Positions 2,038 through 21,681 of a stretch of 25,717 bases of DNA are shown one piece after another; positions within the stretch are counted from its first letter, which is position 1; every line of letters starts with the position of its first letter. The position numbers and the translations under genes are program-made. The stretch comes from an uncultured Chloracidobacterium sp. (GTDB lineage: Bacteria; Acidobacteriota; Blastocatellia; Pyrinomonadales; Pyrinomonadaceae), in assembly GCA_964608335.1 (NCBI GenBank), contig CAZSOE010000001.1, forward strand, positions 1 to 25,717, written 5' to 3'. Below the pieces are notes generated by a model. It saw nothing but the letters and a program-made list of their open reading frames with translations. It made no database searches and had not been told where the DNA came from.

Positions 2038-2053
2038 TGCAAGCCCTATGCCA
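2038..2053 (-). promoter_or_regulatory. sigma54 -24/-12 promoter for the usp gene
   Basis: Minus strand TGGCAT-AGGGC-TTGCA, exact consensus spacing, 61 nt before the ATG. Confidence 0.85.
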
Positions 2054-2093
2054 TTCCAGAATCGCTGTCAGCGCTCCTTCTTCGGGCGTCCCG

Positions 2094-2130
2094 TGCGGAA
2101 TAATTCGCGTTTTCCGCGAATCTTTCCGCC
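2094..2130. promoter_or_regulatory. Tandem putative upstream activator sites between divergent sigma54 promoters
   Basis: CGCGA-ATTATT-CCGCA (minus, 2094-2109) and CGCGA-ATCTTT-CCGCC (plus, 2115-2130); centres 21 bp apart. Confidence 0.6.
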
Positions 2131-2192
2131 TGATCAGCCCGATCCAGCCGTTGTGCTTACCTAATTACAGGCATCTTCGCCGCGAACGGCCA

Positions 2193-2208
2193 TGGAACAC
2201 CGGTTGCA
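2193..2208 (+). promoter_or_regulatory. sigma54 -24/-12 promoter for the AstE-like / GCS2-CBS / DUF5335 operon
   Basis: TGGAAC-ACCGG-TTGCA, exact spacing, 30 nt before ATG 2239. Confidence 0.8.
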
Positions 2209-2238
2209 GTTCTTGGATCGATAATGCGAGGTCCGCTT

Positions 2239-3483
2239 ATGACACCTATCACCGCTGTGGCCGAGATCGATGAGACCTCAGGCCGTCGCCTATCCGAACC
2301 GGGCGAGCCGCTGGTTGAGCCCGGCGAGCACCTGATCGCGTCATTCGGCCATGAACGCAATGGCCCGACGCTGATCGTGATCGGCGGTTTGCACGGCAAC
2401 GAACCGGCCGGCGTGATCGCGCTCAAGGATCTAGCCGGCGTTATCGCGAAGATCGGGCACAAGCTCAGGGGACGCGTCCTCTTCGTTGCGGGCAATACCA
2501 GAGCTCTCCGGAGCGGTGCCCGCTATCTGGACACCGACCTCAATCGCTGCTGGACGCACGCGATGATGCACGGAAAAGACGCGGCCGGTTTTCAAGACAC
2601 ATCGGAAGGGCGCGAGCTTGCCGAGCTTGACGACCTGCTGGACAGCATCCTGATCACCGCGATGGACGAGGTCTTTGTGATCGATCTGCACTCGACATCC
2701 GCCGAAGGGATCTCGTTTGCGACCGTCGGCGATACGCTCCGAAATCGGGCGTTCGCCCAAAAGTTCCCCGTGGCGATCCTGCTTGGTATCGAGGAACAAC
2801 TCGAAGGTACACTTCTCGAACACCTGAACAACGATGGAGCCGTTACGCTCGGGTTCGAGGGCGGACAGCATTTGTCGGTTCGCACGGTTGAGAATCACCG
2901 TGCGATCGTTCTGCTTGGCTTGGTCAACGCGGGAATCGTCGATCGGCGCGATCTGCCGGAGCTCGACACTGCGCTCGAACTTCTTTCAAGCGAAACGAAC
3001 GGTACGCAGCTCTTCGAAATACTGCATCGCCAGGCGATCCGGCCCGACGACGATTTCGAAATGGCGGGACACTTTGACAACTTCGAGCCGGTCGAGCGCG
3101 GCCGCGTGATCGCGCACGACCGCGGAGGACGGATCCGGTCGCCGAGATCGGGTCTGATCATAATGCCACTCTACCAGCGGCTTGGAAATGACGGCTTCTT
3201 TATCGGCCGGCGCATTTCACCGTTTTGGCTTTGGCTTTCCGGCGTGCTCCGGCGGGCGGGCCTGCAGAAGGCAGTTCACTGGCTACCCGGCGTTTCGCAA
3301 GACCCGGATGACCCAGCAACGTTGATCGTAAATACGAGCGTGGCGCGACTCTTCCCGCTGCAAGTCTTTCACTTGCTCGGATTTCGCCGACGGCGGTGGG
3401 TGGGCAACAAGCTGGTCGTCAGCCGCCGGCGACACGATACGACCGGCCCATTCAAATGGGAGGGAACGTCTGATGGGAGATAA
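2239..3483 (+). CDS. Succinylglutamate desuccinylase/aspartoacylase (AstE/AspA, M14-like zinc) family hydrolase with C-terminal extension, 414 aa
   Basis: GGLHGNEP (HxxE), DLNRCW, IDLHS, FEGG. Start moved from 2224 to ATG 2239 because of GAGGT at 2228-2232. Confidence 0.8.
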   Translation: MTPITAVAEIDETSGRRLSEPGEPLVEPGEHLIASFGHERNGPTLIVIGGLHGNEPAGVIALKDLAGVIAKIGHKLRGRVLFVAGNTRALRSGARYLDTDLNRCWTHAMMHGKDAAGFQDTSEGRELAELDDLLDSILITAMDEVFVIDLHSTSAEGISFATVGDTLRNRAFAQKFPVAILLGIEEQLEGTLLEHLNNDGAVTLGFEGGQHLSVRTVENHRAIVLLGLVNAGIVDRRDLPELDTALELLSSETNGTQLFEILHRQAIRPDDDFEMAGHFDNFEPVERGRVIAHDRGGRIRSPRSGLIIMPLYQRLGNDGFFIGRRISPFWLWLSGVLRRAGLQKAVHWLPGVSQDPDDPATLIVNTSVARLFPLQVFHLLGFRRRRWVGNKLVVSRRRHDTTGPFKWEGTSDGR

Positions 3484-5410
3484 GAAGGTTACGAGCGAAT
3501 ACGACGACGAACAGATGCGTCGCTTCACGCTTGCGGTGCTCAATGACCTACAGACGCTAGAGGCGATGCTAGACGCAGGGATGTTCGAGGAGGACGTCCG
3601 GCGGATCGGAGCGGAGCAGGAGATGTTCCTTGTCGACTCCGCGATGCGGCCGGCCCCACTGGCGATCGAGGTCATCGAACAGGCGCGCGACGGACGTCTG
3701 ACGACAGAGATCGGCCGGTTCAATCTCGAAGCGAACCTTACGCCGCGCGAACTTGCAGGTGACTGTCTTTCGCAAATGGAGACGGAACTCAACGAGATCA
3801 TCGGCGTCGTGCGAACCGCCGCCGGCGAGTTCGACGCCGACGTTGTGCTCGCGGGAATACTCCCAACCATCCAGCTATCCGACCTCACACACGAGAATCT
3901 CACGCCCAACCCGCGTTACGACGAGATCGACCGCGTTGTTACAAAGCTGCATGGCAAGGACCGCTTCATCCAGATCAAGGGCCTGGATGAGCTGCAGTTG
4001 ACGCTGCAGGACACCTATATCGAATTTTGCAATACAAGTTTTCAAATTCACCTGCAGACCGGCATTCGTGATTTCGTTAGGTACTACAACTGGGCGCAGG
4101 CATTGGCCGCCCCGGTCCTGGCTTCGGCTGTCAACTCGCCGCTGCTATTGAATCACCGCCTCTGGCACGAGACGCGGCTCGCCCTGTTCCAGCACGCGAC
4201 CGACACGCGGTCGCACACGCATAAGGAACGGAACCAAACGCCGCGCGTGAACTTTGGCGACCGGTGGGTGAATGATTCGATCATCGAAGTATTGCGCGAG
4301 GATGCGATAAGGTTCCGGATACTGTTGACACAAGCTGTCGAGGAGAATTCGCTCCGAACGTTGGCGAAGGGTGGTGTGCCCGCGTTATCGGCCTGGCGGC
4401 TGCACAACGGGACGATCTGGCGCTGGAACCGCCCGTGCTACGGCATAGTGGGCGACAAGCCGGGGCTTCGTATCGAGGCCAGATACCTACCGTCAGGCCC
4501 GTCCGTCGTGGACGAAATGGCGAACGCCGCATTCTTTCTGGGCTTGATGACGGAGATGCCTGATGAATTCGGCGACATAACAAAATACATGTCGTTCGAC
4601 GATGCGAAGAACAACTTCTTCAATGCCGCGCGGTACGGGCTGAACGGTCAGATCCGCGGACTCGACGGCAAGAGCCGTCGCGTCGGACGTCTGATCCTTG
4701 AGGAACTACTCCCGCGCGCGCGTCGGGGGCTTAAAAGCGCATCGGTCGACGAGGCCGACATCGAACGCTTACTGGCTGTCCTAGAGGCACGTGTTTCAAA
4801 TGAAACGTCCGGCGCAAAATGGATGCTCGAGTCGCTTGCCGCGATGGACAAGCGTGCCAAACCGAACGTTCGAATGCGTACATTGACGGCGGCGATGAAA
4901 GCAAATCAGATCGAAGGTAAACCGATGCACGAGTGGCCCCTCGCCGCGATACCCGAACAAAGCGAATGGATCGATAATTACAAGACCGTGGAACAGTTCA
5001 TGGCTGTCGATCTCTTTACCGTTAGACCCGAGGACATCCTCGACCTCGCGGCCAGTCTGATGCATTGGCGGCACGTGCGACACGTACCGGTCGAGGACGA
5101 TGCGGGCCGCTTGATCGGCATCGTTTCGCACCGCGACCTGATCGAGCTGCTCGCAAGCGGCCGTGCGGCGACCAGGACGCCTGTACTGGTCAGCGAAATA
5201 ATGAAGACCGGTCTCATCACTGTCTCACCGGAAACACCCACGCTCGACGCGCTCGAACTGATGCGCGAGAAAAACATTGGTTGTTTGCCGGTGATCAAGG
5301 ATGGCAGGCTGGTCGGGCTGGTTACGGCATACGATTTTCTCACCGTCTCGGCGAAACTCCTGGAGGAAAAACTCACCGGCCTGGCAAGGAGCCAGGCAAA
5401 GGCTGCATAG
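3473..5410 (+). CDS. Glutamate-cysteine ligase family 2 (carboxylate-amine ligase) fused to a C-terminal CBS pair, 645 aa
   Basis: IGAEQEMFLVD, TTEIGRFNLEAN, NTSFQIHLQ, SAVNSP, WRWNRPCY, RIEARYLPSG; CBS repeats VRHVPVEDDAGRLIGIVSHRD and IGCLPVIKDGRLVGLVTAYD; overlaps the upstream stop. Confidence 0.8.
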   Translation: MGDKKVTSEYDDEQMRRFTLAVLNDLQTLEAMLDAGMFEEDVRRIGAEQEMFLVDSAMRPAPLAIEVIEQARDGRLTTEIGRFNLEANLTPRELAGDCLSQMETELNEIIGVVRTAAGEFDADVVLAGILPTIQLSDLTHENLTPNPRYDEIDRVVTKLHGKDRFIQIKGLDELQLTLQDTYIEFCNTSFQIHLQTGIRDFVRYYNWAQALAAPVLASAVNSPLLLNHRLWHETRLALFQHATDTRSHTHKERNQTPRVNFGDRWVNDSIIEVLREDAIRFRILLTQAVEENSLRTLAKGGVPALSAWRLHNGTIWRWNRPCYGIVGDKPGLRIEARYLPSGPSVVDEMANAAFFLGLMTEMPDEFGDITKYMSFDDAKNNFFNAARYGLNGQIRGLDGKSRRVGRLILEELLPRARRGLKSASVDEADIERLLAVLEARVSNETSGAKWMLESLAAMDKRAKPNVRMRTLTAAMKANQIEGKPMHEWPLAAIPEQSEWIDNYKTVEQFMAVDLFTVRPEDILDLAASLMHWRHVRHVPVEDDAGRLIGIVSHRDLIELLASGRAATRTPVLVSEIMKTGLITVSPETPTLDALELMREKNIGCLPVIKDGRLVGLVTAYDFLTVSAKLLEEKLTGLARSQAKAA

Positions 5411-5423
5411 AGAGGTAAGGACA

Positions 5424-5768
5424 ATGACAAAACCCGGACGTGAACATGGATGGAAGCGATATCTCGACTTTGTTGGGAAACAGTGGTTGGGGCGGAAGAC
5501 CCGCCTCGGGATATTTGAACCGGACCGAAAAGCCATGCAGGACTACTGGATCGAGTGCGGGCTTCCGCTGGAAGGGATCGAGCTCGACGAGTCCCACGAC
5601 CGGCCAGCGGTCTACGTAAAGCTGCGCACCCTCGGCCACGAGGTCAGAGAACCGGTTCGTATCTCATTCCATCTGAGCAAGAGCGGTGATGAGGACGGCG
5701 TCGACATACTCGATGCTGCCGGCCGGATGACGGTCCTAAGGTTCGAATCGGATCAGGCCGTCGCCTAA
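5424..5768 (+). CDS. DUF5335-like small soluble protein, 114 aa
   Basis: RBS GAGGTAAGGA then ATG 5424. W..Y....GLPLEGI...HEVREPVRI...ILDAAGRMTVLRF aligns by eye with the protein at 21186-21572. Family name is from memory. Confidence 0.6.
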   Translation: MTKPGREHGWKRYLDFVGKQWLGRKTRLGIFEPDRKAMQDYWIECGLPLEGIELDESHDRPAVYVKLRTLGHEVREPVRISFHLSKSGDEDGVDILDAAGRMTVLRFESDQAVA

Positions 5769-5934: not shown

Positions 5935-5950
5935 TGGAACAGCGGTTGCT
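5935..5950 (+). promoter_or_regulatory. sigma54 -24/-12 promoter for the Crp/Fnr gene
   Basis: TGGAAC-AGCGG-TTGCT, nearly identical to the 2193 site; predicted +1 near 5961. Confidence 0.8.
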
Positions 5951-5961
5951 CCCGAGCATGC

Positions 5962-6759
5962 ATGATGAAAACCGCAATCCAGATCGATACGCAGGGGGTC
6001 GAGCCCGACGGCTGGCCCGCCGAGACGATGACGACGCCCGGGCGGCGAAAAGATAACGGGAGCTACTTTTGCCATCCTCCGGAAGACGATCTTCGGCAGT
6101 TTAGGGTGATGAAGCTTGTCAGGTCCATGCCAAAGGGAGCGACGCTCTTCATGCAGGGCCAGGAGACGACCGGCGTATATGTTCTCTGCGAGGGGAAAGT
6201 GAAGCTGACGGCCAGCTCCGCAGACGGTAAGACGATCATCGTCCAGATCGCCGAGCCTGGCGATGTTCTCGGCCTGAGCGCGGCAATAGATGGGGCGGAA
6301 CACGAAACCTCGGCCGTCGCGCTTGCTGACTGTCGTGTAAATTACTTTCAAACGGCTGACCTGCTTCGGTTATTGAACGGTTCCGCGGCGGCAAGCTTGA
6401 ACGCGGCAAAACTGCTGAGCCGAAATTATCAGGTGGCGCACCGGCAGATCTGCTCGCTGGGTCTGGCCGATTCGGTCTTTGATAAGATCGCCCGGCTGCT
6501 GTTGTCCTGGGCGCCGACGCAGAACGGCGCGAAGTGCGTTCACATAGACAATTTCTTTACCCACGAGGAGATCGCGGGAATGATCGGGTCATCGCGCGAG
6601 ACAGTCACGAGAACGTTAAAGACGTTTCGCGAGCGCGACCTTATCAGGGTTAGCGGCCGCGAGCTCGTGATAGAAAATGTGGCAAGGTTGCGAGCTGCGG
6701 CCGGTATTACGAACGGCGAACCGATAACCAACTCGTTCCCTTTGATCGATCGGATGTGA
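5962..6759 (+). CDS. Crp/Fnr family transcriptional regulator with CRP-type recognition helix
   Basis: cNMP-binding-fold region (LFMQGQ..GVYVLCEGKVKL...AEPGDVLGL) and HTH THEEIAGMIGSSRETVTRTL. The start is uncertain (5962, 5965 or 6028). Confidence 0.9.
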   Translation: MMKTAIQIDTQGVEPDGWPAETMTTPGRRKDNGSYFCHPPEDDLRQFRVMKLVRSMPKGATLFMQGQETTGVYVLCEGKVKLTASSADGKTIIVQIAEPGDVLGLSAAIDGAEHETSAVALADCRVNYFQTADLLRLLNGSAAASLNAAKLLSRNYQVAHRQICSLGLADSVFDKIARLLLSWAPTQNGAKCVHIDNFFTHEEIAGMIGSSRETVTRTLKTFRERDLIRVSGRELVIENVARLRAAAGITNGEPITNSFPLIDRM

Positions 6760-6798
6760 CCTTGCTCACATACGCGCAAGCGATCAGTTGATTAACCT
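6754..6798 (+). promoter_or_regulatory. Perfect CRP-type box with downstream -10 (class II-like promoter) for mtrAB
   Basis: ATGTGA-CCTTGC-TCACAT (6754-6771) overlaps the crp stop codon. TAACCT at 6793-6798 places the box centre at about -42.5. Confidence 0.8.
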
Positions 6799-6857: not shown

Positions 6858-7883
6858 ATGGCAAATACTAACAGGATCAAGATTGTATTACTGGCCCTCT
6901 TCGCGATTTGCGTGGCCGTTTGGGGCATCTCGGCGACGCGTTCGCCCGTCTATGGCGAGGCCGTGGATCTCGACATGGGCGGCTCGGCAGGGTCCGAGGC
7001 GGCTTCGGTCGATGACTACGTCGGAAGTGAAGCCTGCCAGACCTGCCACGAAGACCAGTTCAAAGGGTTTTCGGGAACGAAACACGCGAAACTCAAAGAG
7101 GTTGCGGGCTGGAAGACCAAGGCGCAAGGATGCGAGTCTTGCCACGGCCCCGGCAAGAAGCACGTCGAGGATGCAACCGTTCCGGGCTCGATCATTTCCT
7201 TCAAGACAAAGAACGCCAAGGAAACCTCTGAGACGTGCCTGGCATGTCACGCCGGAAAGGAATCGCATAACAACTTTCGTCGTGGCGAGCACTGGCGTAA
7301 CAACATCGGGTGCACTGATTGCCATTCCCCTCACGGAGCTATGCATGGTGCGTTCAAGGTCGGTTCAACGACGCTTGTCAATCGAGCATCGGATGTGAAT
7401 CCTGCCCCGGCAATGCTCAAAACCAACGAGCAGAAGCTTTGCATCGCGTGCCACAACGAAGTTAGATCCCATTTCAGCAAACCATTCCGGCACAAAGTTC
7501 TGGAAGGGACGATGAAATGCAGCGATTGTCACAACGCACACGGCGGGTTTGAATCGAAGCAAACCAAACTCGGTATCGGGGCTGACGTGGCCTGTGTAAG
7601 ATGCCACGCGGATAAACAAGGTCCGTTTGTTTTTGAACACGCTCCGCTCAAGGTCGAAGGTTGTGCAGCATGTCATACGCCGCATGGTTCGGCGAATCCA
7701 AGATTACTTAAGCGGCATCAGGTGCGCCAGCTTTGTCTGGAATGCCACAGTGGCGTCACGGCGCAGCTCTCGGACACCCCGGCCGGCGGCCCGCATAACC
7801 AGAGGACATTATTGCAACGCAACTGTACGGCCTGTCACACGATGATTCACGGCTCGAACTCGAGCAATGTGTTCTTTAGATAG
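6858..7883 (+). CDS. mtrA: Decaheme c-type cytochrome, MtrA/DmsE/PioA/MtoA family, 341 aa
   Basis: Signal peptide; 10 CXXCH (CQTCH, CESCH, CLACH, CTDCH, CIACH, CSDCH, CVRCH, CAACH, CLECH, CTACH); family hallmarks GPFVFEHAP and HGSN at the C-terminus. The symbol indicates family, not proven orthology. Confidence 0.92.
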   Translation: MANTNRIKIVLLALFAICVAVWGISATRSPVYGEAVDLDMGGSAGSEAASVDDYVGSEACQTCHEDQFKGFSGTKHAKLKEVAGWKTKAQGCESCHGPGKKHVEDATVPGSIISFKTKNAKETSETCLACHAGKESHNNFRRGEHWRNNIGCTDCHSPHGAMHGAFKVGSTTLVNRASDVNPAPAMLKTNEQKLCIACHNEVRSHFSKPFRHKVLEGTMKCSDCHNAHGGFESKQTKLGIGADVACVRCHADKQGPFVFEHAPLKVEGCAACHTPHGSANPRLLKRHQVRQLCLECHSGVTAQLSDTPAGGPHNQRTLLQRNCTACHTMIHGSNSSNVFFR

Positions 7884-7904
7884 CGATGGATAAGAGGAGG
7901 ATCT

Positions 7905-10193
7905 ATGACAACCCGAAGTTTTAGGACAATAAGAGCCACGGTCGTCACAAACAAGATTATATTCATCGTTCTCATGGTGATCGGAGGGCTCGTTCTCACC
8001 GCGCCAAACCTGTGGGCCCAAACGCCGTCCCCGACCCCTTCCGAGAGTTTAACGACCGTTGGCGACTATGAAATAACTTCCAGTATAGAACTAGGGGTCC
8101 GCGGGCTTAAGGCTACTGGCAGCGACGAAAAATTTCGGAGTGATCTTAACTATCGCCCGGGCTTTCGGGTCTTTGACTCCAGCTTCCGGATGGAAACCAA
8201 ACGCGGAAAAGGGAAGCCATTTGATTCGTTGACGGTGACGTCGTCAGGCTGGAGTGGAGACCCCTCGGGCTTTGTTCGCGTAAATGCCGAAAAGAGTGGA
8301 GGATACACGCTTAATGCCAACCTTCGCCGTGTCAATCTGATCAATCGAGTCAATAATTTGATCCTTGCTCTTCATCCCTCGAATACAAGGCGTTACTTTG
8401 GTGATGTTGATTTGACGGTCTTTCCCGAAAGCCAAAACCTGCGGCTCCGTTTCGGAACATCGTTTTACAACGCTCGTGGAGCTCGAGGAGCTTCTTATCG
8501 AACGAGGGATGTCTTCCCTATTACGGAGAGGCTTCGGTCCGACACGATCGACCTACGCGGCGGGATCGATACCAAACTGGCGGGCTTTAATCTTTCACTT
8601 ACGGCGGGCGTAAGAGACTTTAATGACAGAGGAAGATTTGTGGTTGAAACGCGACAAGTGGGCGTTGCCGGAAGTTGTTTCTTCGGAGTCTGCATCTCGC
8701 CAACTGATATCAATTTCCTCAATCGGCTCGAAAGGCAAAACCCGACGGACGGAAAGACCAAGTACGGGATGTTCAGCATGCAGCGAACATTTGCGAAGAG
8801 ACTCGATCTTACGGGACGTTTTATTTATTCGGATACCGATCGGGATTTTAACATTCTTGATAACGTTAACTACGATGGTCAACTCAGGTATACGAATACT
8901 GCGGGGTCAAGCGTAACGTCGCCCGCCCTTTTTGCTGATGCGGACACCTACGAGATCACTGGTAGAGCAAAACGTCCGCAATCGAGAGGAGATGTGGGTT
9001 TGACGTTTGCTGCTACCAACAAGTTTAGGATCTCCAATACCTTTACGTTCGATCAATACAATAGCTTTGGCGATACCAATTACTACAATAAGCTTATCGC
9101 GAGGTGTCAGGTTGCTTCGGGTTCAACTTGTCCGGTGGCCGGTGGTCCGTTTGTAGCCGGTCTGGCGGGTGTTTCGTTCCTTGATACCAGGACGTTGTAC
9201 TGGTACTCGTATGGCTTCAAACGCTTTACAAACACCATCGAAGGAGATTACCAATTCAATAACAAAGTCGGGATCAATCTTGGGTACCGTTTTACTCATA
9301 GAAAGATAAGGCTTGCCCATGTCAATCGGATCGTCGATGATCTGGTTAACCGTCCGGTAAGCTCTTTCGTCTCGGTTTCGGCCGATGATGAGGAAGAAGA
9401 AAACACGGCTCATATTTTGTTGTTCGGAACCAAGATCAAGCCGACGTCAAACTGGACGATCTTTGCCGATGGCGAACGTGGGGAGGCAGACAACGCCTTT
9501 ATCCGATTGGCAAACTATGACTACACGAATTTCCGGGTCAGGAGCAACTGGAATTACAAAGAATTTACCTTCAACGTCTCGGGAATCATCCGGAATAACG
9601 AAAATCCCTCGCAGCCCGTCGATCCGAACACCGGTGTTCCCTTGGCGGCCCCATTCTTCGTGGCCAACGTTCGCACCCGTACCTTCTCCTCATATGTTGA
9701 TTATGTCCCAGACCCGCGATGGACGTTGAGCACCGGCTACACTTATAATTTTCTAACCAGCAAGACCGATATCGAGTTGCCTTCCCTCGGCCGGGGATTT
9801 AGCGAATTCTATATGAAGGACAACTATTTCTTCGTGGACGTTTCCGCACATCCGGTCAACCGGGTATCGTTTTATGGGAGTTACCGGTACAACAAGGATA
9901 GCGGTCAGGGGGATCGAGTTTCACCCACTCTGCTGCAGATCATCAGCTCATATCCCTTCCAGTCACATGTGCCTGAATTCCGGATAGCCATCAAGCTGAG
10001 CAAGAACATTGATTGGAATGTGGGGTACCAGTATAACGATTACAAAGAAAAACTTCAGATCGGCTACTATCTCTATAACGAACTGACCACAAATACTATC
10101 CCGCCAAATGCAGTTTATGCCCCGAACCAAAACTACAGAGCTCATCTGCCGTATACTTCTTTGAGAATATATTTCGGCGGCCGGGAACGGTAA
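7905..10193 (+). CDS. mtrB: Outer-membrane beta-barrel porin, MtrB/PioB-like, 762 aa
   Basis: Directly follows the decaheme gene (RBS GAGGAGG); signal peptide; alternating amphipathic strands rich in Y/F/G/N; ends LRIYF plus a short tail. Assignment rests on size, fold pattern and synteny. Confidence 0.75.
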   Translation: MTTRSFRTIRATVVTNKIIFIVLMVIGGLVLTAPNLWAQTPSPTPSESLTTVGDYEITSSIELGVRGLKATGSDEKFRSDLNYRPGFRVFDSSFRMETKRGKGKPFDSLTVTSSGWSGDPSGFVRVNAEKSGGYTLNANLRRVNLINRVNNLILALHPSNTRRYFGDVDLTVFPESQNLRLRFGTSFYNARGARGASYRTRDVFPITERLRSDTIDLRGGIDTKLAGFNLSLTAGVRDFNDRGRFVVETRQVGVAGSCFFGVCISPTDINFLNRLERQNPTDGKTKYGMFSMQRTFAKRLDLTGRFIYSDTDRDFNILDNVNYDGQLRYTNTAGSSVTSPALFADADTYEITGRAKRPQSRGDVGLTFAATNKFRISNTFTFDQYNSFGDTNYYNKLIARCQVASGSTCPVAGGPFVAGLAGVSFLDTRTLYWYSYGFKRFTNTIEGDYQFNNKVGINLGYRFTHRKIRLAHVNRIVDDLVNRPVSSFVSVSADDEEEENTAHILLFGTKIKPTSNWTIFADGERGEADNAFIRLANYDYTNFRVRSNWNYKEFTFNVSGIIRNNENPSQPVDPNTGVPLAAPFFVANVRTRTFSSYVDYVPDPRWTLSTGYTYNFLTSKTDIELPSLGRGFSEFYMKDNYFFVDVSAHPVNRVSFYGSYRYNKDSGQGDRVSPTLLQIISSYPFQSHVPEFRIAIKLSKNIDWNVGYQYNDYKEKLQIGYYLYNELTTNTIPPNAVYAPNQNYRAHLPYTSLRIYFGGRER

Positions 10194-14880: not shown

Positions 14881-14905
14881 TCCGTCTCCTATGATATACG
14901 CGAAT

Positions 14906-14992
14906 GCAGACAAGCCAAGGCCGCCCGCCTTGGCTCGCCGGACTCATTCAAATCTCCGGTTTGCCTTGGCTCAGGCGGCCGTGGCTGTCTGC
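14906..14992 (-). repeat. GC-rich inverted/direct repeat element between the cyt c and imcH-like genes
   Basis: Outer arms GCAGAC-AGCCAcGGCCGCC / GGCGGCCtTGGCT-t-GTCTGC; inner CCGGA/TCCGG hairpin; GAGCCAAGGC occurs twice (14927-14936, 14963-14972). Confidence 0.7.
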
Positions 14993-15017: not shown

Positions 15018-15356
15018 TTAGTCGGCCTTTTTTAGTCCCCGCATGTACTCGGCCAGGGCTTTTGCCTCGGCTTCGGTCATGCCCTTTGCCTCAAAGCCCG
15101 GCATGTACGGAGGTTTTTCTCCCTTCCGGCCTTTGAGGATCGCTTGAACGTGAACGTCTTCCGACTTCGTCGCATCGTAAAACTTCGAAGCATTCGGTAA
15201 ATGGCAAGCCGCGCATTTCGCCTTGTAAGCCGCGGCCGGATCGTCAACAGCGCTTGGGACAAGGTCCCGGGCACGAGCTGTCTTGAACACAAAAAGCGAC
15301 ACGATCGCCGCCGCGAACATCATGATTGCGATAACTTTTATTCGATTGATCCTCAT
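15018..15356 (-). CDS. Monoheme class I cytochrome c, periplasmic, 112 aa
   Basis: Signal peptide ending TARA; single CAACH; distal Met in PYMPGF. Start at ATG 15356 with SD GAGGAAGA, not 15458. Confidence 0.88.
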   Translation of the reverse strand: MRINRIKVIAIMMFAAAIVSLFVFKTARARDLVPSAVDDPAAAYKAKCAACHLPNASKFYDATKSEDVHVQAILKGRKGEKPPYMPGFEAKGMTEAEAKALAEYMRGLKKAD

Positions 15357-15398: not shown

Positions 15399-15414
15399 TG
15401 CAAAGAGCATGCCC
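15399..15414 (-). promoter_or_regulatory. sigma54 -24/-12 promoter for the monoheme cyt c / imcH-like genes
   Basis: Minus strand GGGCAT-GCTCT-TTGCA, exact spacing, 42 nt before the ATG. Confidence 0.72.
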
Positions 15415-15510
15415 GTCGTCGCGGAAGATCGGCACTCCCATAACTCCAAATAGAACAACGAGTTACGATAGCAACGATCCGGCGTTACCGGGTCGCAGAA
15501 CTTAGTTCAC

Positions 15511-15526
15511 CGCGTAAAATTCCACA
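15511..15526. promoter_or_regulatory. Putative upstream activator site
   Basis: CGCGT-AAAATT-CCACA, about 100 bp upstream of the 15399-15414 sigma54 site. Confidence 0.5.
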
Positions 15527-15540
15527 CCTTGCGCGGGACG

Positions 15541-16422
15541 CTAAAACCTAAAACGATCGCCTTGGTGGCACCGCTTACAATTCGCAAAATCGTCGGGTCC
15601 GAACGCACGCTTTCCGTTGTGGCAACCTCCGCAGCTGAGCGAGTTCGCGGGAGCGAAGTGCATTGACGCCAGGGGCGACGAGACCTGCCGTCCGCGAGCC
15701 GAACCCGCGCGGACCGTATGACAGGTCGCACAACTCATTCCCTCCGAAATATGTCTCGCATGGCTGAATCGGAGCTGAAACGCCCTCGTCCATTCTGGGG
15801 TTCGCACCAGCCGTCCGGGCTGATGACACGTGCTGCACGATGCCATCCCGGTCGATGCGTTTGCCGAATGGCACCGGAAGCAGGTGGCGTGGGCCGATGA
15901 GCCCGACGGGATCGACCGTGCGACTCCATTCCTTTGCGACGCGTGGCATGTAGCACAGCCTGTGCGCTGGTGCTTCGCATGATTGAACCTGGCTGCGAAA
16001 CTTCGCAACGGAGGAAACCGTTTCATTGCACCTGTCTCTGGATTAGTGTGACAGATCGTGCAGATCGGGCTCGACCGATCATTGAACTGAGCGGTATGAC
16101 AACCTGCACATGGCAGGTGGTTCACCTTGCCCGGAAAACCCATTCGAGGACTGTTCGTGTCCCGTCGGTGACAGATCAGGCAAGGTAAGCGCGAGTGAAA
16201 TTGGTTGCTGTGCGTAAACCGTGCAAAATCGGCCGCAGCATTTCCAGCAGGCTCGACTGATCCGTTTTCCGTCCAAGGCCCGATCTCAAAACCATGGGCC
16301 CGCCCCGACGAGGAAACATAGACAAACAGCAAGCCGCACGCGATTATGATCAGAACCTGAGTCAGCCGGCGAATAGTGATCGCTCTGGGTACTGCCTGCA
16401 AGTTATTGATATCGTGTGACAT
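15541..16422 (-). CDS. Nonaheme cytochrome made of three c7-type triheme modules, 293 aa
   Basis: Signal peptide; 9 CXXCH in three repeats of FxH-x2/4-H..CXXCH..H..CXXCH..CXXCH. Confidence 0.85.
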   Translation of the reverse strand: MSHDINNLQAVPRAITIRRLTQVLIIIACGLLFVYVSSSGRAHGFEIGPWTENGSVEPAGNAAADFARFTHSNQFHSRLPCLICHRRDTNSPRMGFPGKVNHLPCAGCHTAQFNDRSSPICTICHTNPETGAMKRFPPLRSFAARFNHAKHQRTGCATCHASQRNGVARSIPSGSSAHATCFRCHSANASTGMASCSTCHQPGRLVRTPEWTRAFQLRFSHARHISEGMSCATCHTVRAGSARGRQVSSPLASMHFAPANSLSCGGCHNGKRAFGPDDFANCKRCHQGDRFRF

Positions 16423-16432: not shown

Positions 16433-17578
16433 TCACTTTCCCGCCGCCGCGGCGACCGCGTCCGTGTGGGACTTCGGCACCGGCATCCTCCCCAATACCA
16501 GATGGCACTTTACGCACGTGAATCTAGCGTCGCTCTTGCGTTTGTCGATCTCGAAATTGAGAGCGCCGCCGTCATCGGACGTCGGCGTCGCGTGACATGT
16601 CGCGCAGGCCGTCACGGGCACGCGCTTTGTCGCGGCATCGAGCGTATTCATTGCGGTCACGTTGTGGCAAGTCGCGCACGCCAACTCTTCGTGCGCAAAG
16701 AACTCGTGCCGAAAGGTCCCGGATGAATCGCGTTTTGCCCATGCATCTCGCATGGGTTTCTGCTGTATGCCTATGACAGCGGCGAGTTTCAGGTCAAGGT
16801 CGGCCGCAGGCTCCATCGGCCGCAGTTTGTGGCACGTACTGCATGTCTGCGGCTCTGGCTGGATACCGGTATCGGCAGAATGACACGTGAAGCACGTTGT
16901 GTGTCCCAGCGGCGTACTCTTGAACGTACCTTTCTTCAGCCAGAATTTGTCGCCCAGGTCCGCGGGAGGTTTCGTTAGATATTCATCGTCCGATTTCCCC
17001 TGGGGGGCGACCGTCTGATGACACACGGCACAGCTTGCCTCGGGTTGATCGACGTACGATGCTCGAATGAACGCCGCGCCCGAGCGCTTGTGTGCCGAAA
17101 CTATCTCGATATGCTTGTCGTGCGGGAACTGAATGGCAAAGTCCGATCGGTGCGGTTTCCCTTTTGGTGAGTTATCAAAGATCTCGCGCGGATTTGGAAA
17201 GGGGTGCCGGGACGAATTCCGAGGCGATGGGTTTGTGTGACAGATCGAGCAGATCGCGGGCGGAGATCCGCGAAAGAACTGTTGGGTGTGACACTTCAGA
17301 CATGATTCGTGGCGTGGATATTCGGTGACATCAGGAAAAGCCGCATCTCCGGTACGCACCTTGTTCCAGTTCGAGGACGGAAACTTATGACAGGAGCTGC
17401 ACTCGATTCCGTGGGCTTTTGTAGCGTGCGGGAATTCGCTGTATTTTGGTTTTTTCGGCGTCGGTTGCGGCGCGGGGTTGGCGGCGAGCGGTCTATCGGA
17501 TACAAAAAGCGCCGCACCGGCGGCAAAAAGGGCCAGGACGGTGAGTTGTAAGACCGTTCCCGAGCTTCGCGAAGTCAT
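16433..17578 (-). CDS. Nonaheme cytochrome made of three c7-type triheme modules with insertions, 381 aa
   Basis: Signal peptide, Pro-rich linker, 9 CXXCH (CSSCH, CLKCH, CSICH, CAVCH, CFTCH, CSTCH, CATCH, CATCH, CVKCH), same FxH..H repeat pattern. Confidence 0.85.
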   Translation of the reverse strand: MTSRSSGTVLQLTVLALFAAGAALFVSDRPLAANPAPQPTPKKPKYSEFPHATKAHGIECSSCHKFPSSNWNKVRTGDAAFPDVTEYPRHESCLKCHTQQFFRGSPPAICSICHTNPSPRNSSRHPFPNPREIFDNSPKGKPHRSDFAIQFPHDKHIEIVSAHKRSGAAFIRASYVDQPEASCAVCHQTVAPQGKSDDEYLTKPPADLGDKFWLKKGTFKSTPLGHTTCFTCHSADTGIQPEPQTCSTCHKLRPMEPAADLDLKLAAVIGIQQKPMRDAWAKRDSSGTFRHEFFAHEELACATCHNVTAMNTLDAATKRVPVTACATCHATPTSDDGGALNFEIDKRKSDARFTCVKCHLVLGRMPVPKSHTDAVAAAAGK

Positions 17579-17599
17579 TGTAACAACTACACTTGCAAC

Positions 17600-17642
17600 A
17601 TTTTAAGCCAACTGCTCACTGCTAAATGTGATAGAAGTCACA
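17600..17642 (-). promoter_or_regulatory. Class II CRP-type promoter for the nonaheme pair
   Basis: AAATGTGA-TAGAAG-TCACA (core 17627-17642) and minus-strand -10 TAAAAT (17605-17600); the box centre falls at -41.5. Confidence 0.85.
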
Positions 17643-17667
17643 CTCTGCGTCGGGCGAACCCGCATAG

Positions 17668-17683
17668 TGTGAAGTTTTCCGCA
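17668..17683. promoter_or_regulatory. Putative activator/operator site upstream of the ntrC-like gene
   Basis: TGTGA-AGTTTT-CCGCA, intermediate between the CRP box and the UAS-like motif; centre 41 bp from the CRP box. Confidence 0.45.
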
Positions 17684-17714
17684 CTTCGTTTATTCTAGTG
17701 CCGTCCCTCATTTT

Positions 17715-19115
17715 ATGTCATCCGCAACGGGAAAGGTCCTGATCATTGATGATGACCGCTTTGTGCGCATGGCGCTCGGCGAGGCGCTGAGATCTTGGGA
17801 GTACGATGTAATCGAAGCGGACACCGTGAGATCGGGCGAGCAGTTGTTCGCCGATGAGGAACCACCGATCGTCCTGCTCGATATCGACCTGCCCGACGGC
17901 TCGGGTCTGGATCTGCTCACGCGGATCAAAGAAAGAAACCCCGAATCGGTCGTCGTCATGATAACCGGAAATGTCGATATCGAGAATACGGTGGCGGCGC
18001 TCCGCGGCGGTGCGCACGATTTTATCGGCAAGCCGGTCAGGATCGAGGAGCTTCGGGTAACGCTCCGAAACGCAAGCGAGACGCGCGAGCTTCGGCGGGA
18101 GGTGAGCCGAGCGCGTAGCGAGAGAAAGCGCGGTTTTAGTTTTGACGAGATCATCGGCGAGTCTGCCGCGATGCAGAAAGCGATAGACCTTGCGCGCCGC
18201 GTTGCCGAATCGGATGTCTCATCGATCTTGCTGAACGGCGAGACGGGCACCGGCAAGGACCTTTTCGCGCGGGCGATACACTTCGCCTCCGATCGCGCCG
18301 ACCGGCCCTATCTTGCTATCAACTGCGCGGCCCTGCCAGCCAGTTTGATCGAATCCGAACTCTTTGGCTACGAAAAGGGCGCGTTTACCGACGCGAAATC
18401 GAGGAAAGAAGGATTGTTCGAACAGGCCCACGGCGGGACGATCTTTCTGGACGAGATCGGCGAGATGGAACTCGCTCTTCAGGCGAAACTTCTTCGCGTG
18501 CTCGAGGAGGGTGAGTTCCGACGCGTCGGCGGTCTGAAAGATATCAAGTACGACGCGCGGATCATCGCTGCTTCAAACAGGAACCTGAAACGCGAAAGCG
18601 AGGCGGGAAACTTTCGTCTCGATCTCTACTTTCGCCTTTCGGTGATCCAGGTGGACATTCCGCCGCTTCGCGAGCGCGGTGACGACGTACTTCTGCTTGC
18701 CCGGTACTACATTGAGAAAGCGAATCAGAAGCGCCCGACGCGCGTGCTCGGCGATCTTTCGCCGGAGGTTCAAAAGCTGTTCAGAACTTACGATTGGCCG
18801 GGGAACGTACGCGAGCTAAAGAATGTGATCGAGCGTGCCTCGATTCTCGAGGACGGCAAGCTCGTAACCGCAGCGCACATGCCCGCCGACATGCTTGGCG
18901 GCTCGCGAACAGTCGGGACCGGCGATTCGGCCCTATCGCTTCCGGCCGGCGGCGTATCGCTCGAGACGGTCGAGTTTGAACTCGCAAAACAGGCCTTCGA
19001 CCGCGAGGGCGGCAACCTCACGCGCGCGGCGAAACTCCTCGATATTTCACGCGACCAGCTCCGTTATAAGCTGCGGAAAGGCGGGTTCGAGCCTCATGGG
19101 ACTGAAACGAAATGA
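17715..19115 (+). CDS. sigma54-dependent response regulator (REC-AAA+-HTH; NtrC/AtoC/ZraR family), 466 aa
   Basis: IIDDD, LLDIDLP (phospho-Asp), Walker [39 protein letters not shown], Fis-type [23 protein letters not shown]. Confidence 0.95.
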
Positions 19116-21049
19116 CCGACGGTGCAGAAATTGAGGCGGCTCACTCGGCGGGAGTCGGCAAGGAAGTTTTCAAGGAGTTGTCTGACCTCAAGTTCGCGCT
19201 CGACCAATCGGCTATTGTGGCAGTGACCGACCAGACAGGTCGCATCACATACATCAACGACAAGTTCTGCGAAATATCAAAATACTCTCGTGACGAGCTG
19301 ATCGGTCAGGACCACCGGATCATCAATTCCGCATATCATCCAAAGGAGTTTATCCGTGAACTGTGGACGACGATCGCGCGCGGTCAGGTTTGGCGTGGCG
19401 AACTCCGCAACCGGGCGAAGGACGGAGCGATCTACTGGGTCGATACGACCATCGTTCCGTTCGTTGACGAGCGGGGCAAGCCGTTCCAGTACGTCGCGAT
19501 CCGGTACGAAATAACGCAGAGAAAGCTCGCAGAAGAGCGGATCCGTCAGCAGGCATCGCTGCTCGACAAGGCGCAGGACGCCATCCTCGTTTGTGACCTG
19601 AACTTTCAGGTTCTCTATTGGAACAAAGGCGCTGAAAGAATGTACGGCTGGCCCTCGGCTGAGGCTTTTGGCCGACACATCGCGGACCTGGTGAACGGGG
19701 GCGACCGACGGGACGTTGAGGCGGTTCGTTCGGCGCTTGAGACTTTGGACGAGTGGAAGACTGAGGTCCGCCAGGCAAGGCGCGGCGGCGAGAGGCTGAT
19801 CGTCGAGACCCGCTGGACGCTCGTCCGCAACGAAAAGGGCGAGCCGGACTACTTTCTGATCATCAACACAGACGTTACGGAACAGAAACGCGCTGAAGAG
19901 CATCTCCTGCGGGCCCAGCGAATGGAATCGATCGGTACATTGGCCGGCGGGATCGCGCACGACCTGAACAACATCCTTTCGCCGATAATGATGGCCGTCG
20001 ACATGCTCCGTCTTCAAGACCCGGACCCCGGAACGGCCCGCTGGCTGAAGATGATCAAGGAGAACTCAGAACGCGGGGCCGATCTCATCAAACAGGTGCT
20101 AACCTTCGCACGCGGCATGACTGGTGAACGGATCCCGGTCCAGCTGAAACACCTCATCAAGGAACTCATAGGCGTGCTAAAAGAAACTCTCCCGCGCTCG
20201 ATCACACTCGATTTCGAGATCGAACCTGAACTCTGGACGATCTCGGCCGATCCGACACAGATCCATCAGGTGTTGATGAACGTGTGTATCAATGCGCGTG
20301 ATGCGATGCCCGGCGGCGGCCGCCTGAGCATATCGGCGGCGAACACGACGGTCGATGACAACTATGCGAGGATGAATATCGATGCGCTTCCCGGTAATTA
20401 TGTCCTCCTGACGATAACCGATTCGGGTGTCGGAATGTCACACGATGTGGTCAAGCGCATCTTCGACCCGTTCTTTACCACCAAGGATGTGGGTGAAGGA
20501 ACAGGTCTCGGCCTGGCGACGACCATGACGATCGTCAAGAGCCACGGCGGTTTCATAAATGTGTATTCCGAAGCGGGAAAGGGCTCGCGGTTTTCTGTTT
20601 ACCTCCCCACCGCCGACACTGGCCACCAACCGGCCGTCTCCGGGTCGGCCGCGGCGCTTCCGCGGGGGAGGGGCGAGATGGTGCTCGTCGTCGATGACGA
20701 GGAGAATATTAGGGATGCTGCCGAAGCAACGCTTACACAGTTCGGCTATTCAGTGGCGACTGCGGCCGATGGAGCAGAGGCCCTCGCCGTATTTGCCGAA
20801 GAACGCGGCGCTGTGAAGGCAGTGCTTACCGACATGGCAATGCCGCATATGGATGGCCTGGCCCTCGTCCGCGCTCTAAAGCGTCTCGACCCGGCCATCC
20901 CGATCATTGCCATGAGCGGCCTCGTCAACGAAGCTCAGTCGGTCGAGCTCGAGACTACAGGCGTCAAGGCTTTTCTTGCCAAGCCATTTACCGCGGAGAA
21001 GCTACTCAGCTCGATCGCCGAAGCGCTCGGGTCGGCTGACGAATCGTGA
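19112..21049 (+). CDS. Soluble PAS-PAS hybrid histidine kinase with C-terminal receiver, 645 aa
   Basis: Two PAS/PAC domains, H-box [13 protein letters not shown] boxes ([26 protein letters not shown]), [11 protein letters not shown]; no TM segment; ATGA overlap with the regulator. Confidence 0.95.
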
Positions 21050-21102: not shown

Positions 21103-21118
21103 TGGCACAGAATTTGAT
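21103..21118 (+). promoter_or_regulatory. Deviant sigma54-like site for the DUF5335 gene
   Basis: TGGCAC-AGAAT-TTGAT: perfect -24 element and spacing, but -12 GC is replaced by GA. Confidence 0.45.
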
Positions 21119-21185
21119 TAACCTTTATTCCGGGTATCCTTACCGACAGCCCATCGTCGCGCTTCTCCGGCGACAGGGAGGAATA

Positions 21186-21572
21186 ATGAATTACGCGATT
21201 GACGATAAGGAATGGCCGCGTTTTTTTGAGGAGCTTAGCAGGTATCGCTATGGCTGGAAGACCGCGATAGAGATCCTGAACTCCGATGTGGGTGGACAGG
21301 TCCTCACGGAGGGGCTAGCGCTCAACGGTGTTACCGCCGCAAAGGCCAATGGAAAGCCCGGGATCGAGATATCGATTGGACTAAGCGCCGAAGCTCATCA
21401 GACCCACACGCTCCGACAACCGGTGCGCGTCTCGCTTTTTGCTGGAACCGAAGCCCATCGTGACGTAGTGAGCATCGAAGAACTCGACGGAACACAGACA
21501 CTTATCAGGTTCATCGAGCCGCGGGGCCTGCTCCTCGCATTCAAAGAAATGCGTATGGCGGCCGTGGCCTGA
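21186..21572 (+). CDS. DUF5335-family protein, 128 aa
   Basis: SD GGGAGGA, ATG 21186; EWPRFFEELS...IEIL..DVGGQ...GLALNGV...HQTHTLRQPVRV...IEELDGTQTLIRF. Family recalled, not searched. Confidence 0.7.
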   Translation: MNYAIDDKEWPRFFEELSRYRYGWKTAIEILNSDVGGQVLTEGLALNGVTAAKANGKPGIEISIGLSAEAHQTHTLRQPVRVSLFAGTEAHRDVVSIEELDGTQTLIRFIEPRGLLLAFKEMRMAAVA

Positions 21573-21587
21573 GAGACAAACGAAAAA

Positions 21588-21624
21588 CGCGAAAAAAATC
21601 TGCGGGCGCGCGAGTTTTTCCACA
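21588..21624. promoter_or_regulatory. Tandem putative upstream activator sites
   Basis: CGCGA-AAAAAA-TCTGC (weak) and CGCGA-GTTTTT-CCACA; centres 21 bp apart, as at 2094-2130. Confidence 0.55.
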
Positions 21625-21665
21625 GGCACATCTCCGCGGAGCCTTGGAAATAGTGCATTTATCCG

Positions 21666-21681
21666 CGGCACGCCTTTTGCG
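21666..21681 (+). promoter_or_regulatory. sigma54 -24/-12 promoter for the small membrane protein
   Basis: CGGCAC-GCCTT-TTGCG, exact spacing. Confidence 0.75.

Follow-up and report, generated by a model that had tools for sequence, protein, structure and literature searches.

What controls a set of multiheme cytochrome operons that lie among the genes for a sensor kinase, an NtrC-type activator and a Crp/Fnr-family regulator? The question is raised by a 25.7-kb stretch of DNA from an uncultured Chloracidobacterium sp. (contig CAZSOE010000001.1, positions 1 to 25,717; G+C content 57%), hereafter called the window, whose closest protein relatives belong to metagenome-assembled Pyrinomonadaceae and 'Chloracidobacterium' genomes (Acidobacteriota, class Blastocatellia). 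An earlier note, made from the sequence alone, had seen in it a regulatory cascade in which sigma-54 promoters switch on crp, and Crp in turn switches on an mtrAB-like electron conduit and a pair of nonaheme cytochromes. Our comparison with related loci indicates that the circuit probably does have two tiers and is conserved in Pyrinomonadaceae-type Acidobacteria: a sigma-54 tier—stress genes, the operon of an ImcH-like cytochrome, and crp—would lead to a Crp tier made up of the mtrAB-like genes and the nonaheme pair. The architecture and conservation of the motifs stood up in every computational test that we ran; the feed-forward form that had been proposed for the cascade did not.

The loci compared number 82, of which 80 were fetched from representative genomes and two came from exact-protein look-ups; their Crp proteins share 44–80% identity with that of the window. 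We scored the regions 5′ of each orthologous gene for sigma-54 sites (at least 11 bits) and for CRP boxes (TGTGA-N6-TCACA, at most one mismatch). Eight gene families served as controls: GCS2-CBS, DUF5335, the putative barrel gene next to mtrA, the Rieske protein, cytochrome b, the 9-heme cytochrome, the imcH-like gene and the second nonaheme gene.

Conserved sigma-54 sites ahead of usp, cyt c, crp and astE

All six sigma-54-type sites named in the earlier note, the deviant one at 21103 among them, are present in the window (cyt c, monoheme cytochrome c gene; 2-TM, two-transmembrane; ORF, open reading frame):

2038-2053 (core 2039-2053), minus strand: sigma-54 promoter of usp; TGGCATAGGGCTTGC, TGGCATAGGGCTTGCA; 16.3 bits; predicted start near 2027
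2193-2208 (core 2193-2207), plus strand: sigma-54 promoter of the astE-like/GCS2-CBS/DUF5335 operon; TGGAACACCGGTTGC, TGGAACACCGGTTGCA; predicted start near 2219
5935-5950 (core 5935-5949), plus strand: sigma-54 promoter of crp; TGGAACAGCGGTTGC, TGGAACAGCGGTTGCT; predicted start near 5961
15399-15414 (core 15400-15414), minus strand: sigma-54 promoter of the cyt c/imcH-like operon; GGGCATGCTCTTTGC, GGGCATGCTCTTTGCA; 15.0 bits; predicted start near 15388
21666-21681 (core 21666-21680), plus strand: sigma-54 promoter of the 2-TM ORF; CGGCACGCCTTTTGC, CGGCACGCCTTTTGCG; predicted start 21692
21103-21118 (core 21103-21117), plus strand: deviant sigma-54-like site ahead of a DUF5335 gene; TGGCACAGAATTTGA, TGGCACAGAATTTGAT; −12 element GA, not GC

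With at most one mismatch to TGGCAC-N5-TTGC, a consensus built on GG-N10-GC at −24/−12, the window holds six matches as against 1.6 expected, a number reached in none of 100 shuffles (the sixth of these matches, at 12473, is intragenic and had rightly been passed over by the earlier note). At up to two mismatches, however, there is no enrichment (18 matches, 22 expected), so that the motif count alone is weak evidence. What supports the sites is their position, orientation and conservation. A site precedes usp in 17 of 20 orthologous regions, 43–96 nt from the start codon, and cyt c in 32 of 41, at 43–73 nt; the corresponding figures are 30 of 78 for crp and 13 of 34 for astE. In each of these four families the sites are co-oriented with the gene and fall in a narrow range of distances from its start codon, and the eight control families yielded 0–2 sites each. 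The imcH-like gene, which lies 3′ of cyt c and probably forms one operon with it, had no sigma-54 site directly upstream in any of 39 loci, and a CRP box with one mismatch in only two.

We also considered the 21103 site as a sixth promoter and left it unsupported: besides its GA at −12, no enhancer (see below) of at least 4 bits lies between 20900 and 21110.

A predicted palindromic enhancer shared by the sigma-54 promoters

Aligning the sigma-54 promoters by their −24 element brought out a further motif, unseen in the earlier note: the 16-bp palindrome TGCGAA-N4-TTCGCA, located upstream of them. The most enriched exact palindrome, GCGA-N6-TCGC, occurs in 15 of 92 regions 5′ of sigma-54 sites as against 2 of 313 control regions, and a symmetric weight matrix converges on yGCGaAawwTtCGCr, equivalent to TGCGAA-N4-TTCGCA. 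To avoid circularity, the matrix was trained on cyt c regions only. It nevertheless finds the motif before 16 of 17 usp, 27 of 30 crp and 12 of 13 astE promoters, compared with 34 of the 313 controls—and 22 of those 34 matches are regions upstream of the nonaheme pair (mhc381) or of ntrC. At a threshold of 11 bits there are 249 sites in 1.27 Mb, against 20–35 in shuffled sequence.

The distances from the centre of the palindrome to the −24 element form a ladder with a step of about 10.5 bp (48–49, 59–60, 69–71, 80–81, 90–91, 100–102 and 112–113 bp), which is the expectation for an activator that would have to be held to one face of the helix in order to reach the sigma-54 holoenzyme. We predict that the palindrome is the shared enhancer (upstream activating sequence) of these promoters. 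Its copies in the window are as follows:

2092-2111 (centre 2101.5), unstranded: enhancer common to the divergent usp and astE promoters; cGTGCGGAATAATTCGCGtt; 16.8 bits; 48.5 bp (usp) and 91.5 bp (astE) to the −24 element
2113-2132, unstranded: second, weaker copy near usp/astE; 5.1 bits
5832-5851 (centre 5841.5), unstranded: crp enhancer; GGCGCGAATTTTTTCGCACT; 24.2 bits; 93.5 bp to the −24 element
15509-15528 (centre 15518.5), unstranded: cyt c enhancer; ACCGCGTAAAATTCCACACC; 21.4 bits; 104.5 bp to the −24 element
17666-17685 (centre 17675.5), unstranded: copy on the ntrC side; AGTGTGAAGTTTTCCGCACT; 21.3 bits; 40 bp 5′ of the ntrC start codon
21607-21626 (centre 21616.5), plus strand: weak 2-TM enhancer; 10.9 bits; 49.5 bp before the 2-TM promoter

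These arrangements recur elsewhere. The spacings seen at usp/astE are found again in other loci, and all 32 cyt c sigma-54 promoters have the enhancer, mostly 98–104 bp away. The crp enhancer is kept in locus L001 amid otherwise diverged DNA; the unit of enhancer plus sigma-54 site is present at 38 of the 78 crp orthologs. In orthologs the promoter variant xGGAAy-N5-TTGC recurs 88–102 bp after the enhancer. The copy at 17666-17685 has no sigma-54 promoter downstream and is probably an autoregulatory operator of ntrC, as its place upstream of that gene suggests.

One further match, inside the PAS kinase gene, occupies the same place in two genomes (19392-19411 in the window, 2377-2396 in L023); it falls within the conserved peptide VWRGELRN and is probably a coding coincidence.

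CRP boxes in class II position at the mtrA and nonaheme promoters

The earlier note had reported perfect TGTGA-N6-TCACA boxes before mtrAB and before the nonaheme pair, and had held these to be the only two. Both are where it saw them, and there is a third, inside queA; the chance expectation for the window is 0.02.

6755-6770, unstranded: perfect CRP box of the mtrA promoter; TGTGACCTTGCTCACA; overlaps the crp stop codon; −10 element TAACCT at 6793-6798; predicted start near 6805; box centre near −42
17600-17642, minus strand: class II promoter of the nonaheme pair; perfect box at 17627-17642, −10 element TAAAAT at 17600-17605, predicted start near 17593
22887-22902, unstranded: third perfect box, in queA; TGTGATCGAGATCACA; codons GAT GTG ATC GAG ATC ACA (D-V-I-E-I-T)

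A box precedes mtrA in 74 of 75 loci and the first nonaheme gene in 19 of 26. In these 74 mtrA and 19 nonaheme regions, a conserved TAAnnT (TAaaaT in the nonaheme set) follows 22–27 nt after the box, which therefore has its centre near −41.5, the geometry of class II activation in which the box replaces the −35 element and its centre stands about 30 bp from the −10 hexamer. Conservation in syntenic genomes, a test that the earlier note had itself proposed, thus came out positive for the sigma-54 sites and for the CRP boxes alike, and the seven transcription starts that it had predicted (2027 minus, 2219 plus, 5961 plus, 6805 plus, 15388 minus, 17593 minus and 21692 plus) fit the sigma-54 geometry, with a start about 12 nt past the −12 GC, and the class II geometry, with one about 7 nt past the −10 hexamer.

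The queA box was examined as a promoter element and rejected, there being no TAnnnT 22–28 nt away on either strand. Its function is doubtful; it may be a coding coincidence or a binding site outside a promoter. Near-matches to the box inside the cytochrome genes arise from CXXCH codons.

The box at 17627 lies in the region that the nonaheme pair shares with the divergent ntrC, 41 bp from the enhancer copy, and feedback of the Crp tier on the kinase/activator operon through this box is possible. We looked for a plus-strand class II promoter reading from it towards ntrC; a TAGTGT at 17665-17670 stands at the right distance, but the arrangement is not conserved in L083 or L015 and we regard such a promoter as a mere possibility.

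In more distant relatives (L030, L032, L034, L044, L045, L048 and L049), two tandem CRP-type boxes precede mtrA, one perfect and one of GGTGA type, about 23 bp apart from centre to centre.

The Crp/Fnr-family regulator and its signal

Which protein would read these boxes, and in response to what? The gene directly upstream of mtrA offers a candidate:

5962-6759, plus strand: Crp/Fnr-family regulator (crp); cNMP-binding domain (PF00027), HTH_Crp_2 (PF13545) and PF00325; recognition helix SRETVTR

The helix, of the form R-E-x-x-x-R, does not vary among 28 orthologs. Its counterpart in GlxR, the closest relative of solved structure, is the SRETV recognition helix; mycobacterial Crp and E. coli CAP come next, and all three are proteins that bind sites of TGTGA type. 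In place of the Arg in contact with the cAMP phosphate (R82 in E. coli, with an aligned Arg in GlxR), the window protein has His and the orthologs His or Tyr; in the HMMER alignment, PRTSSA of GlxR pairs with EHETSA. The NCBIfam CRP equivalog is not reached either (63.8 bits, cut-off 266). Judged by its sequence, the regulator is not a cAMP-CRP.

Nor does the window protein resemble FNR in its DNA-binding part: its helix reads RETVTR instead of the FNR-type E-x-x-S-R, and the sites are of TGTGA type instead of TTGAT-N4-ATCAA. At the N-terminus, an FNR-like C-x2-C-x6-10-C motif is found in 60 of the 78 orthologs, with Cys124 nearly invariant. The window protein has one of the three N-terminal cysteines left, and so lacks an FNR cysteine cluster.

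In most species the second tier thus probably needs a signal of its own. This bears on an alternative in which the second tier works not as a timer but as an AND gate: sigma-54 control would supply the Crp/Fnr-like protein, which would act only on a second signal—anoxia, for example, sensed by an FNR-like iron-sulfur cluster—the sensor having been lost or replaced in the lineage of the window. The prevalence of the cysteine motif points in this direction, and so does its retention in 29 of the 38 crp genes that have the enhancer-plus-sigma-54 unit. (The same count led us to reject the idea that loss of the cysteines was traded for sigma-54 control of crp; in L002, cysteines coexist with a sigma-54 site that lies 101 bp from an enhancer of 24 bits.) A modulator may also be at hand, for many loci carry an ORF of about 105–150 aa between crp and mtrA (10766-11224 in L010, 10904-11221 in L023; absent from the window), which resembles a cNMP-binding domain without a helix-turn-helix and could modulate the regulator. 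On the other side, the window protein has kept a single cysteine of the three, and an iron-sulfur cluster in the family is a conjecture from sequence. We hold the AND gate to be a tentative but serious possibility, one that refines the two-tier explanation and does not contradict it.

The start of crp deserves a remark of its own. With transcription predicted to begin at 5961 and the start codon placed at 5962 or 5965, the mRNA would be leaderless or nearly so. Between the window and L001, the opening 31 nt of the ORF show no difference, and the flanks share about 80% identity (5949-5993 in the window, 146-190 in L001). A start at Met23, which would avoid the leaderless mRNA, was rejected: L001 has Ile there, the N-terminal sequence MKTAIQIDTQ is conserved, and the sole indel measures 3 nt.

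The NtrC-type activator and the PAS kinase

Two overlapping genes encode the candidate regulators of the first tier:

17715-19115, plus strand: NtrC-type activator (ntrC); response-regulator receiver (REC) domain PF00072, sigma-54 AAA+ domain PF00158 (231 bits), Fis-type helix-turn-helix PF02954 (HTH_8)
19112-21049, plus strand: PAS-PAS-HisKA-HATPase-REC hybrid kinase (pasHK); soluble, without a membrane segment; overlaps the ntrC stop codon (19112-19115)

The activator matches no named equivalog (NCBIfam AtoC 414 against a cut-off of 714, NtrC 396 against 559) and represents an unnamed subfamily; the intact gene would imply that rpoN is present in the genome. Orthologs of 66–80% identity occur in 10 of the 82 loci, in varied positions and orientations, and a metagenome scan supplied 80 further ntrC loci. 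Among the 21 orthologs of at least 66% identity, 16 have the enhancer within 400 bp upstream, in different gene contexts, where chance would place it about 0.01 times per 400 bp. This copy is often held in common with a divergent, sigma-54-driven usp, and in five of 12 cases enhancer-plus-sigma-54 units lie 3′ of pasHK.

The local activator is most likely the protein that binds the palindrome, in keeping with the view of the earlier note that a local enhancer-binding protein drives the sigma-54 sites; what speaks for that view is the adjacency of enhancer and ntrC in close orthologs. A different activator encoded elsewhere might instead serve promoters and enhancers that are perfectly real, the local NtrC-type protein and kinase being mere neighbours. 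Acidobacteria encode many sigma-54 activators, many syntenic loci (L002, for instance) carry the units with no ntrC within 10 kb, and the more distant ntrC relatives of 58–65% identity have the enhancer upstream in just 15 of 61 cases. Since ntrC is so often not nearby, the assignment of activator to enhancer rests on adjacency in a minority of loci. Even so, that adjacency spans several gene contexts, no sigma-54 activator of any other type was seen in the 82 loci, and the helix-turn-helix of the activator, invariant in nine orthologs, is matched by an invariant motif; we therefore think a foreign activator unlikely. Co-variation of helix-turn-helix and motif was uninformative in the 58–65% group, as the recognition helix ISRDQLRY is unchanged there.

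The sigma-54 regulon in other genomes

Across all loci we collected 180 enhancer-plus-sigma-54 units. The ORFs downstream of them include:

cyt c: 31 units
crp: 30 units
usp: 23 units
astE: 18 units
ResB (cytochrome c biogenesis): 12 units, for example at 13425, plus strand, of L028 and in 11 other loci
second Usp type: 9 units
Pyr_redox_2 oxidoreductase: 7 units
LDH-like dehydrogenase: 3 units
qNOR-like protein: 2 units

Such a set of genes suggests that the regulon responds to low oxygen, redox state or energy stress. Further units outside the window stand, for example, at 4446 (minus strand) of L090 and 5166 (minus strand) of L078. The gene facing the nonaheme pair in divergent orientation, ntrC in the window, is resB in many loci.

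The 2-TM protein, too, is encoded 3′ of such units. Of the two ORFs that could be the '2-TM gene' of the window, one of 85 aa at 21695-21952 and one of 112 aa at 21702-22040 (TTG start), the longer is the likelier, because it alone has clear homologs (L055, 2e-6; L084, 2e-7). Both homologs follow enhancer-plus-sigma-54 units, and the unit in L084 comes after pasHK.

Joining the two tiers

From the motifs, their conservation and spacing, and the domain content of the proteins, all of which are observed, we infer the following order of events, including which protein pairs with which site, the direction of each effect, the signal, and any delay between the tiers. The PAS kinase would sense a signal, possibly low oxygen or redox state, and phosphorylate the activator encoded at 17715-19115. 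Bound to the palindrome, the activator would open five sigma-54 units: usp, the astE-like/GCS2-CBS/DUF5335 operon, crp, the cyt c/imcH-like operon and the 2-TM ORF. The Crp/Fnr-type protein, bound to boxes at about −41.5, would then recruit sigma-70 polymerase to the mtrAB-like genes and the nonaheme pair in class II fashion, and so link sigma-70 promoters to a sigma-54 regulon, the part that Nac plays for NtrC.

The feed-forward loop proposed in the earlier note does not fit this layout. In the window, a sigma-54/enhancer unit and a driving CRP box never occur at one and the same promoter, and the only region with both box and enhancer (17627-17685) has no sigma-54 promoter. With no promoter receiving both inputs, the arrangement is a cascade plus a parallel direct arm rather than a strict feed-forward loop.

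The link between the tiers would be cut if the boxes were bound by another Crp/Fnr paralog, such as a global cAMP-CRP, in which case the cytochrome operons would not be under the sigma-54 tier. A second Crp-family gene does lie about 10 kb away in L002, sigma-54 control is predicted at only half of the crp orthologs, and the regulator encoded locally is without the cAMP-contacting Arg and, in the window, without any recognisable sensory motif. Yet in almost all of some 75 loci the boxed mtrA promoter directly follows crp, and this adjacency, together with the invariant R-E-x-x-x-R helix, is the usual signature of a dedicated local regulator; we consider a paralog improbable. That the motifs are chance or compositional matches without a regulatory role is barely credible: the sigma-54 pattern is not enriched at two mismatches and CXXCH codons do yield near-matches to the box, but position, orientation and spacing are conserved across dozens of diverged loci, whose Crp proteins are only 44–59% identical, and chance would not readily produce three perfect boxes.

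Several observations weigh against the two-tier circuit. The sigma-54-contacting loop of the activator reads GAFTDA, not GAFTGA (residues 221–226; 18375-18392); it is invariant in nine orthologs and keeps the Phe and Thr, with the last Gly changed to Asp. The predicted leaders at the crp, astE and 2-TM promoters, of 0–10 nt, are unusual for sigma-54 transcripts; wrong predicted starts would weaken these three promoters, though conservation and enhancers argue for them. With the enhancer-plus-sigma-54 unit present at just 38 of the 78 crp orthologs, the two tiers are not joined in every genome. To these are added the units in loci with no ntrC close by, the absence from the window regulator of both the cAMP-binding Arg and the cysteine motif of its orthologs, and the third perfect box, which lies in queA without promoter geometry.

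Cytochrome genes and other features of the window

The predicted targets of the circuit, and the genes beside them, are these:

6858-7883, plus strand: mtrA-like decaheme cytochrome; 10 CXXCH
7905-10193, plus strand: 762-aa partner, putative outer-membrane barrel; so labelled from its position next to the mtrA-like gene
10209-10240, plus strand: intrinsic terminator ending the mtrAB unit; 14-bp stem, then a T run
13249-14913, minus strand: ImcH-like 7-heme membrane cytochrome of NapC/NirT type; 7 CXXCH
15018-15356, minus strand: monoheme cytochrome c, 5′ of the imcH-like gene
16433-17578, then 15541-16422, minus strand: nonaheme c-type cytochromes, an operon of two

The MtrA-like protein is similar to the MtrA chain of the MtrCAB structure (6R2Q_A, 7.5e-31) and also matches the DmsE-family decaheme model TIGR03508 (230 bits, cut-off 192). 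The label 'MtrB', given to its partner in the earlier note, was not confirmed by sequence: the 762-aa protein has no match in Pfam, NCBIfam or the PDB (phmmer), nor does a 21-sequence profile find one in the PDB, and besides position the label is backed by one of 21 orthologs, which matches PF11854 (MtrB_PioB) at 4.8e-6. No gene for an MtrC/OmcA-type surface decaheme partner lies beside mtrAB.

The ImcH-like protein has three N-terminal hydrophobic helices, seven CXXCH motifs plus one CX3-4CH (CGLACH, right after the third hydrophobic stretch), and a NapC/NirT domain at residues 126–244. ImcH has been defined by three N-terminal membrane helices, an adjoining atypical CX3CH and five to nine CX2CH motifs (PMC6295460), features that the predicted protein shares and that mark it as a putative quinol oxidase of ImcH type. 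The same 2018 survey found mtrAB or mtoAB adjacent to imcH in no genome (PMC6295460). Here the ImcH-like gene (13249-14913) is part of the same conserved cluster as the mtrAB-like genes (6858-10193).

The Rieske operon, to which the earlier note had assigned neither signature, indeed has neither: none of 13 orthologous upstream regions carries a sigma-54 or CRP motif. Co-transcription with mtrAB, which would make it Crp-dependent, was considered and rejected on account of the terminator at 10209-10240 between them. The 9-heme cytochrome of this Rieske/cytochrome b operon (11949-13259; 436 aa) matches the Pfam model of MtrC/MtrF domain II/IV (38 bits, cut-off 30) and has a hydrophobic helix at its end; as a partner of a bc-type complex it is unusual.

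The window as a whole reads, in gene order:

Left end: TauE-like exporter; usp (minus strand); astE-like; GCS2-like with CBS domains; DUF5335; crp
Middle: mtrA-like decaheme cytochrome; 762-aa protein; Rieske protein; cytochrome b; 9-heme cytochrome
Minus-strand block: ImcH-like 7-heme cytochrome; monoheme cytochrome c; two nonaheme cytochromes
Right end: NtrC-type activator; PAS-PAS hybrid kinase; DUF5335; small membrane ORF; tRNA-Leu; queA; rimI; thiE

Pfam bears out the labels Usp, AstE-like, Crp, Rieske, cytochrome b, NtrC-type activator and PAS kinase. The block of crp, mtrA, barrel gene, (Rieske operon), imcH-like gene, cyt c and nonaheme pair is kept in most loci, often with the astE-like operon directly upstream of crp. 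The two DUF5335 paralogs lie at the end of the astE-like operon (5301-5768) and 3′ of the kinase gene (21186-21572); a DUF5335 gene of L023 comes with a sigma-54 site of its own and an enhancer in common with astE. The tRNA-Leu(CAA) gene (22127-22215) overlaps the 5′ end of the long queA ORF (22186-23319), so the true queA start must lie further downstream; the Pfam match of this ORF begins at residue 37.

Known circuits of similar logic, and what this one may mean

In Klebsiella and E. coli, the sigma-54 activator NtrC of a two-component system switches on the sigma-54-dependent gene of a second regulator, Nac, which acts on sigma-70 promoters. This is the closest parallel in logic, a second regulator adapting a sigma-54 regulon to ordinary promoters. 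The predicted adapter of the window belongs to the Crp/Fnr family rather than to LysR, its output would be multiheme cytochromes together with stress genes instead of nitrogen assimilation, the enhancer is TGCGAA-N4-TTCGCA, and the predicted sensor is a soluble PAS hybrid kinase. In Pseudomonas aeruginosa, the low-oxygen sensor ANR induces DNR, a second Crp/Fnr regulator, which turns on operons of alternative respiration. That hierarchy, too, ends in a second Crp/Fnr-family regulator, whereas the top tier proposed here is a sigma-54 activator with a PAS kinase in place of an FNR protein, the targets are electron-transfer cytochromes in place of denitrification enzymes, and the boxes are TGTGA, not FNR-type TTGAT. 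The flagellar hierarchy of Vibrio (FlrA, FlrBC, FliA) likewise proceeds in tiers, its early sigma-54 genes including the regulator of the next tier and an envelope-spanning structure being assembled in order from the inside out; for the window, ordered assembly would be our extrapolation, and it is a Crp-type activator, instead of a further sigma factor or activator, that would form the second tier.

In output, the closest parallel is Shewanella oneidensis, in which CRP binds upstream of the omcA-mtrCAB promoters and activates the Mtr-type conduit (PMC4417206). A CRP-type protein is predicted at the conduit promoters here as well. Unlike the global cAMP receptor of Shewanella, however, it is a local paralog that lacks the cAMP-contacting Arg and would be under sigma-54 in about half of the genomes; the geometry is class II, and neither mtrC nor omcA adjoins mtrAB. 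The RpoN regulon of Geobacter sulfurreducens shows sigma-54 at work in the physiology of a cytochrome-rich metal reducer (PMC2725144). The phylum, activators and motifs differ from those of the window. For Geobacter, we know of no description of a conduit operon that sigma-54 controls by way of a Crp-type regulator.

A literature search returned nothing on the regulation of electron-transfer genes specific to Acidobacteria or Pyrinomonadaceae. What is new is the wiring in an understudied phylum; its parts—sigma-54 activators, CRP class II activation, a Nac-type adapter—are familiar and imply no new mechanism.

As to purpose, we tentatively propose a low-oxygen or redox programme. The PAS kinase and sigma-54 activator might first induce Usp, ResB (in other genomes), the ImcH-like oxidase and the Crp/Fnr-type regulator; the latter, with FNR-like cysteines in most species and CRP-type DNA specificity, might then turn on the MtrAB-type conduit, a just-in-time build from the inside out. 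In the lineage of the window the cysteine sensor would have been lost and the second tier set by transcription alone. Soil Acidobacteria of the Pyrinomonadaceae type are usually seen as aerobes.

Blastocatellia and Pyrinomonadaceae are abundant in soils and wastewater, and their respiratory regulation is almost undescribed; surveys have found Acidobacteria to possess many multiheme cytochromes whose use is not known (PMC8100337). For the conserved cluster of mtrAB-like, ImcH-like and nonaheme genes, the analysis provides a concrete regulatory map consisting of an enhancer, sigma-54 promoters and a class II CRP-type box. With these three elements, genomes and metagenomes can be searched for whole regulons, reporters can be designed and metatranscriptomes interpreted. 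Should the circuit answer to low oxygen or redox state, it would mark when these bacteria switch to extracellular electron transfer, and so bear on the cycling of iron and carbon in soil.

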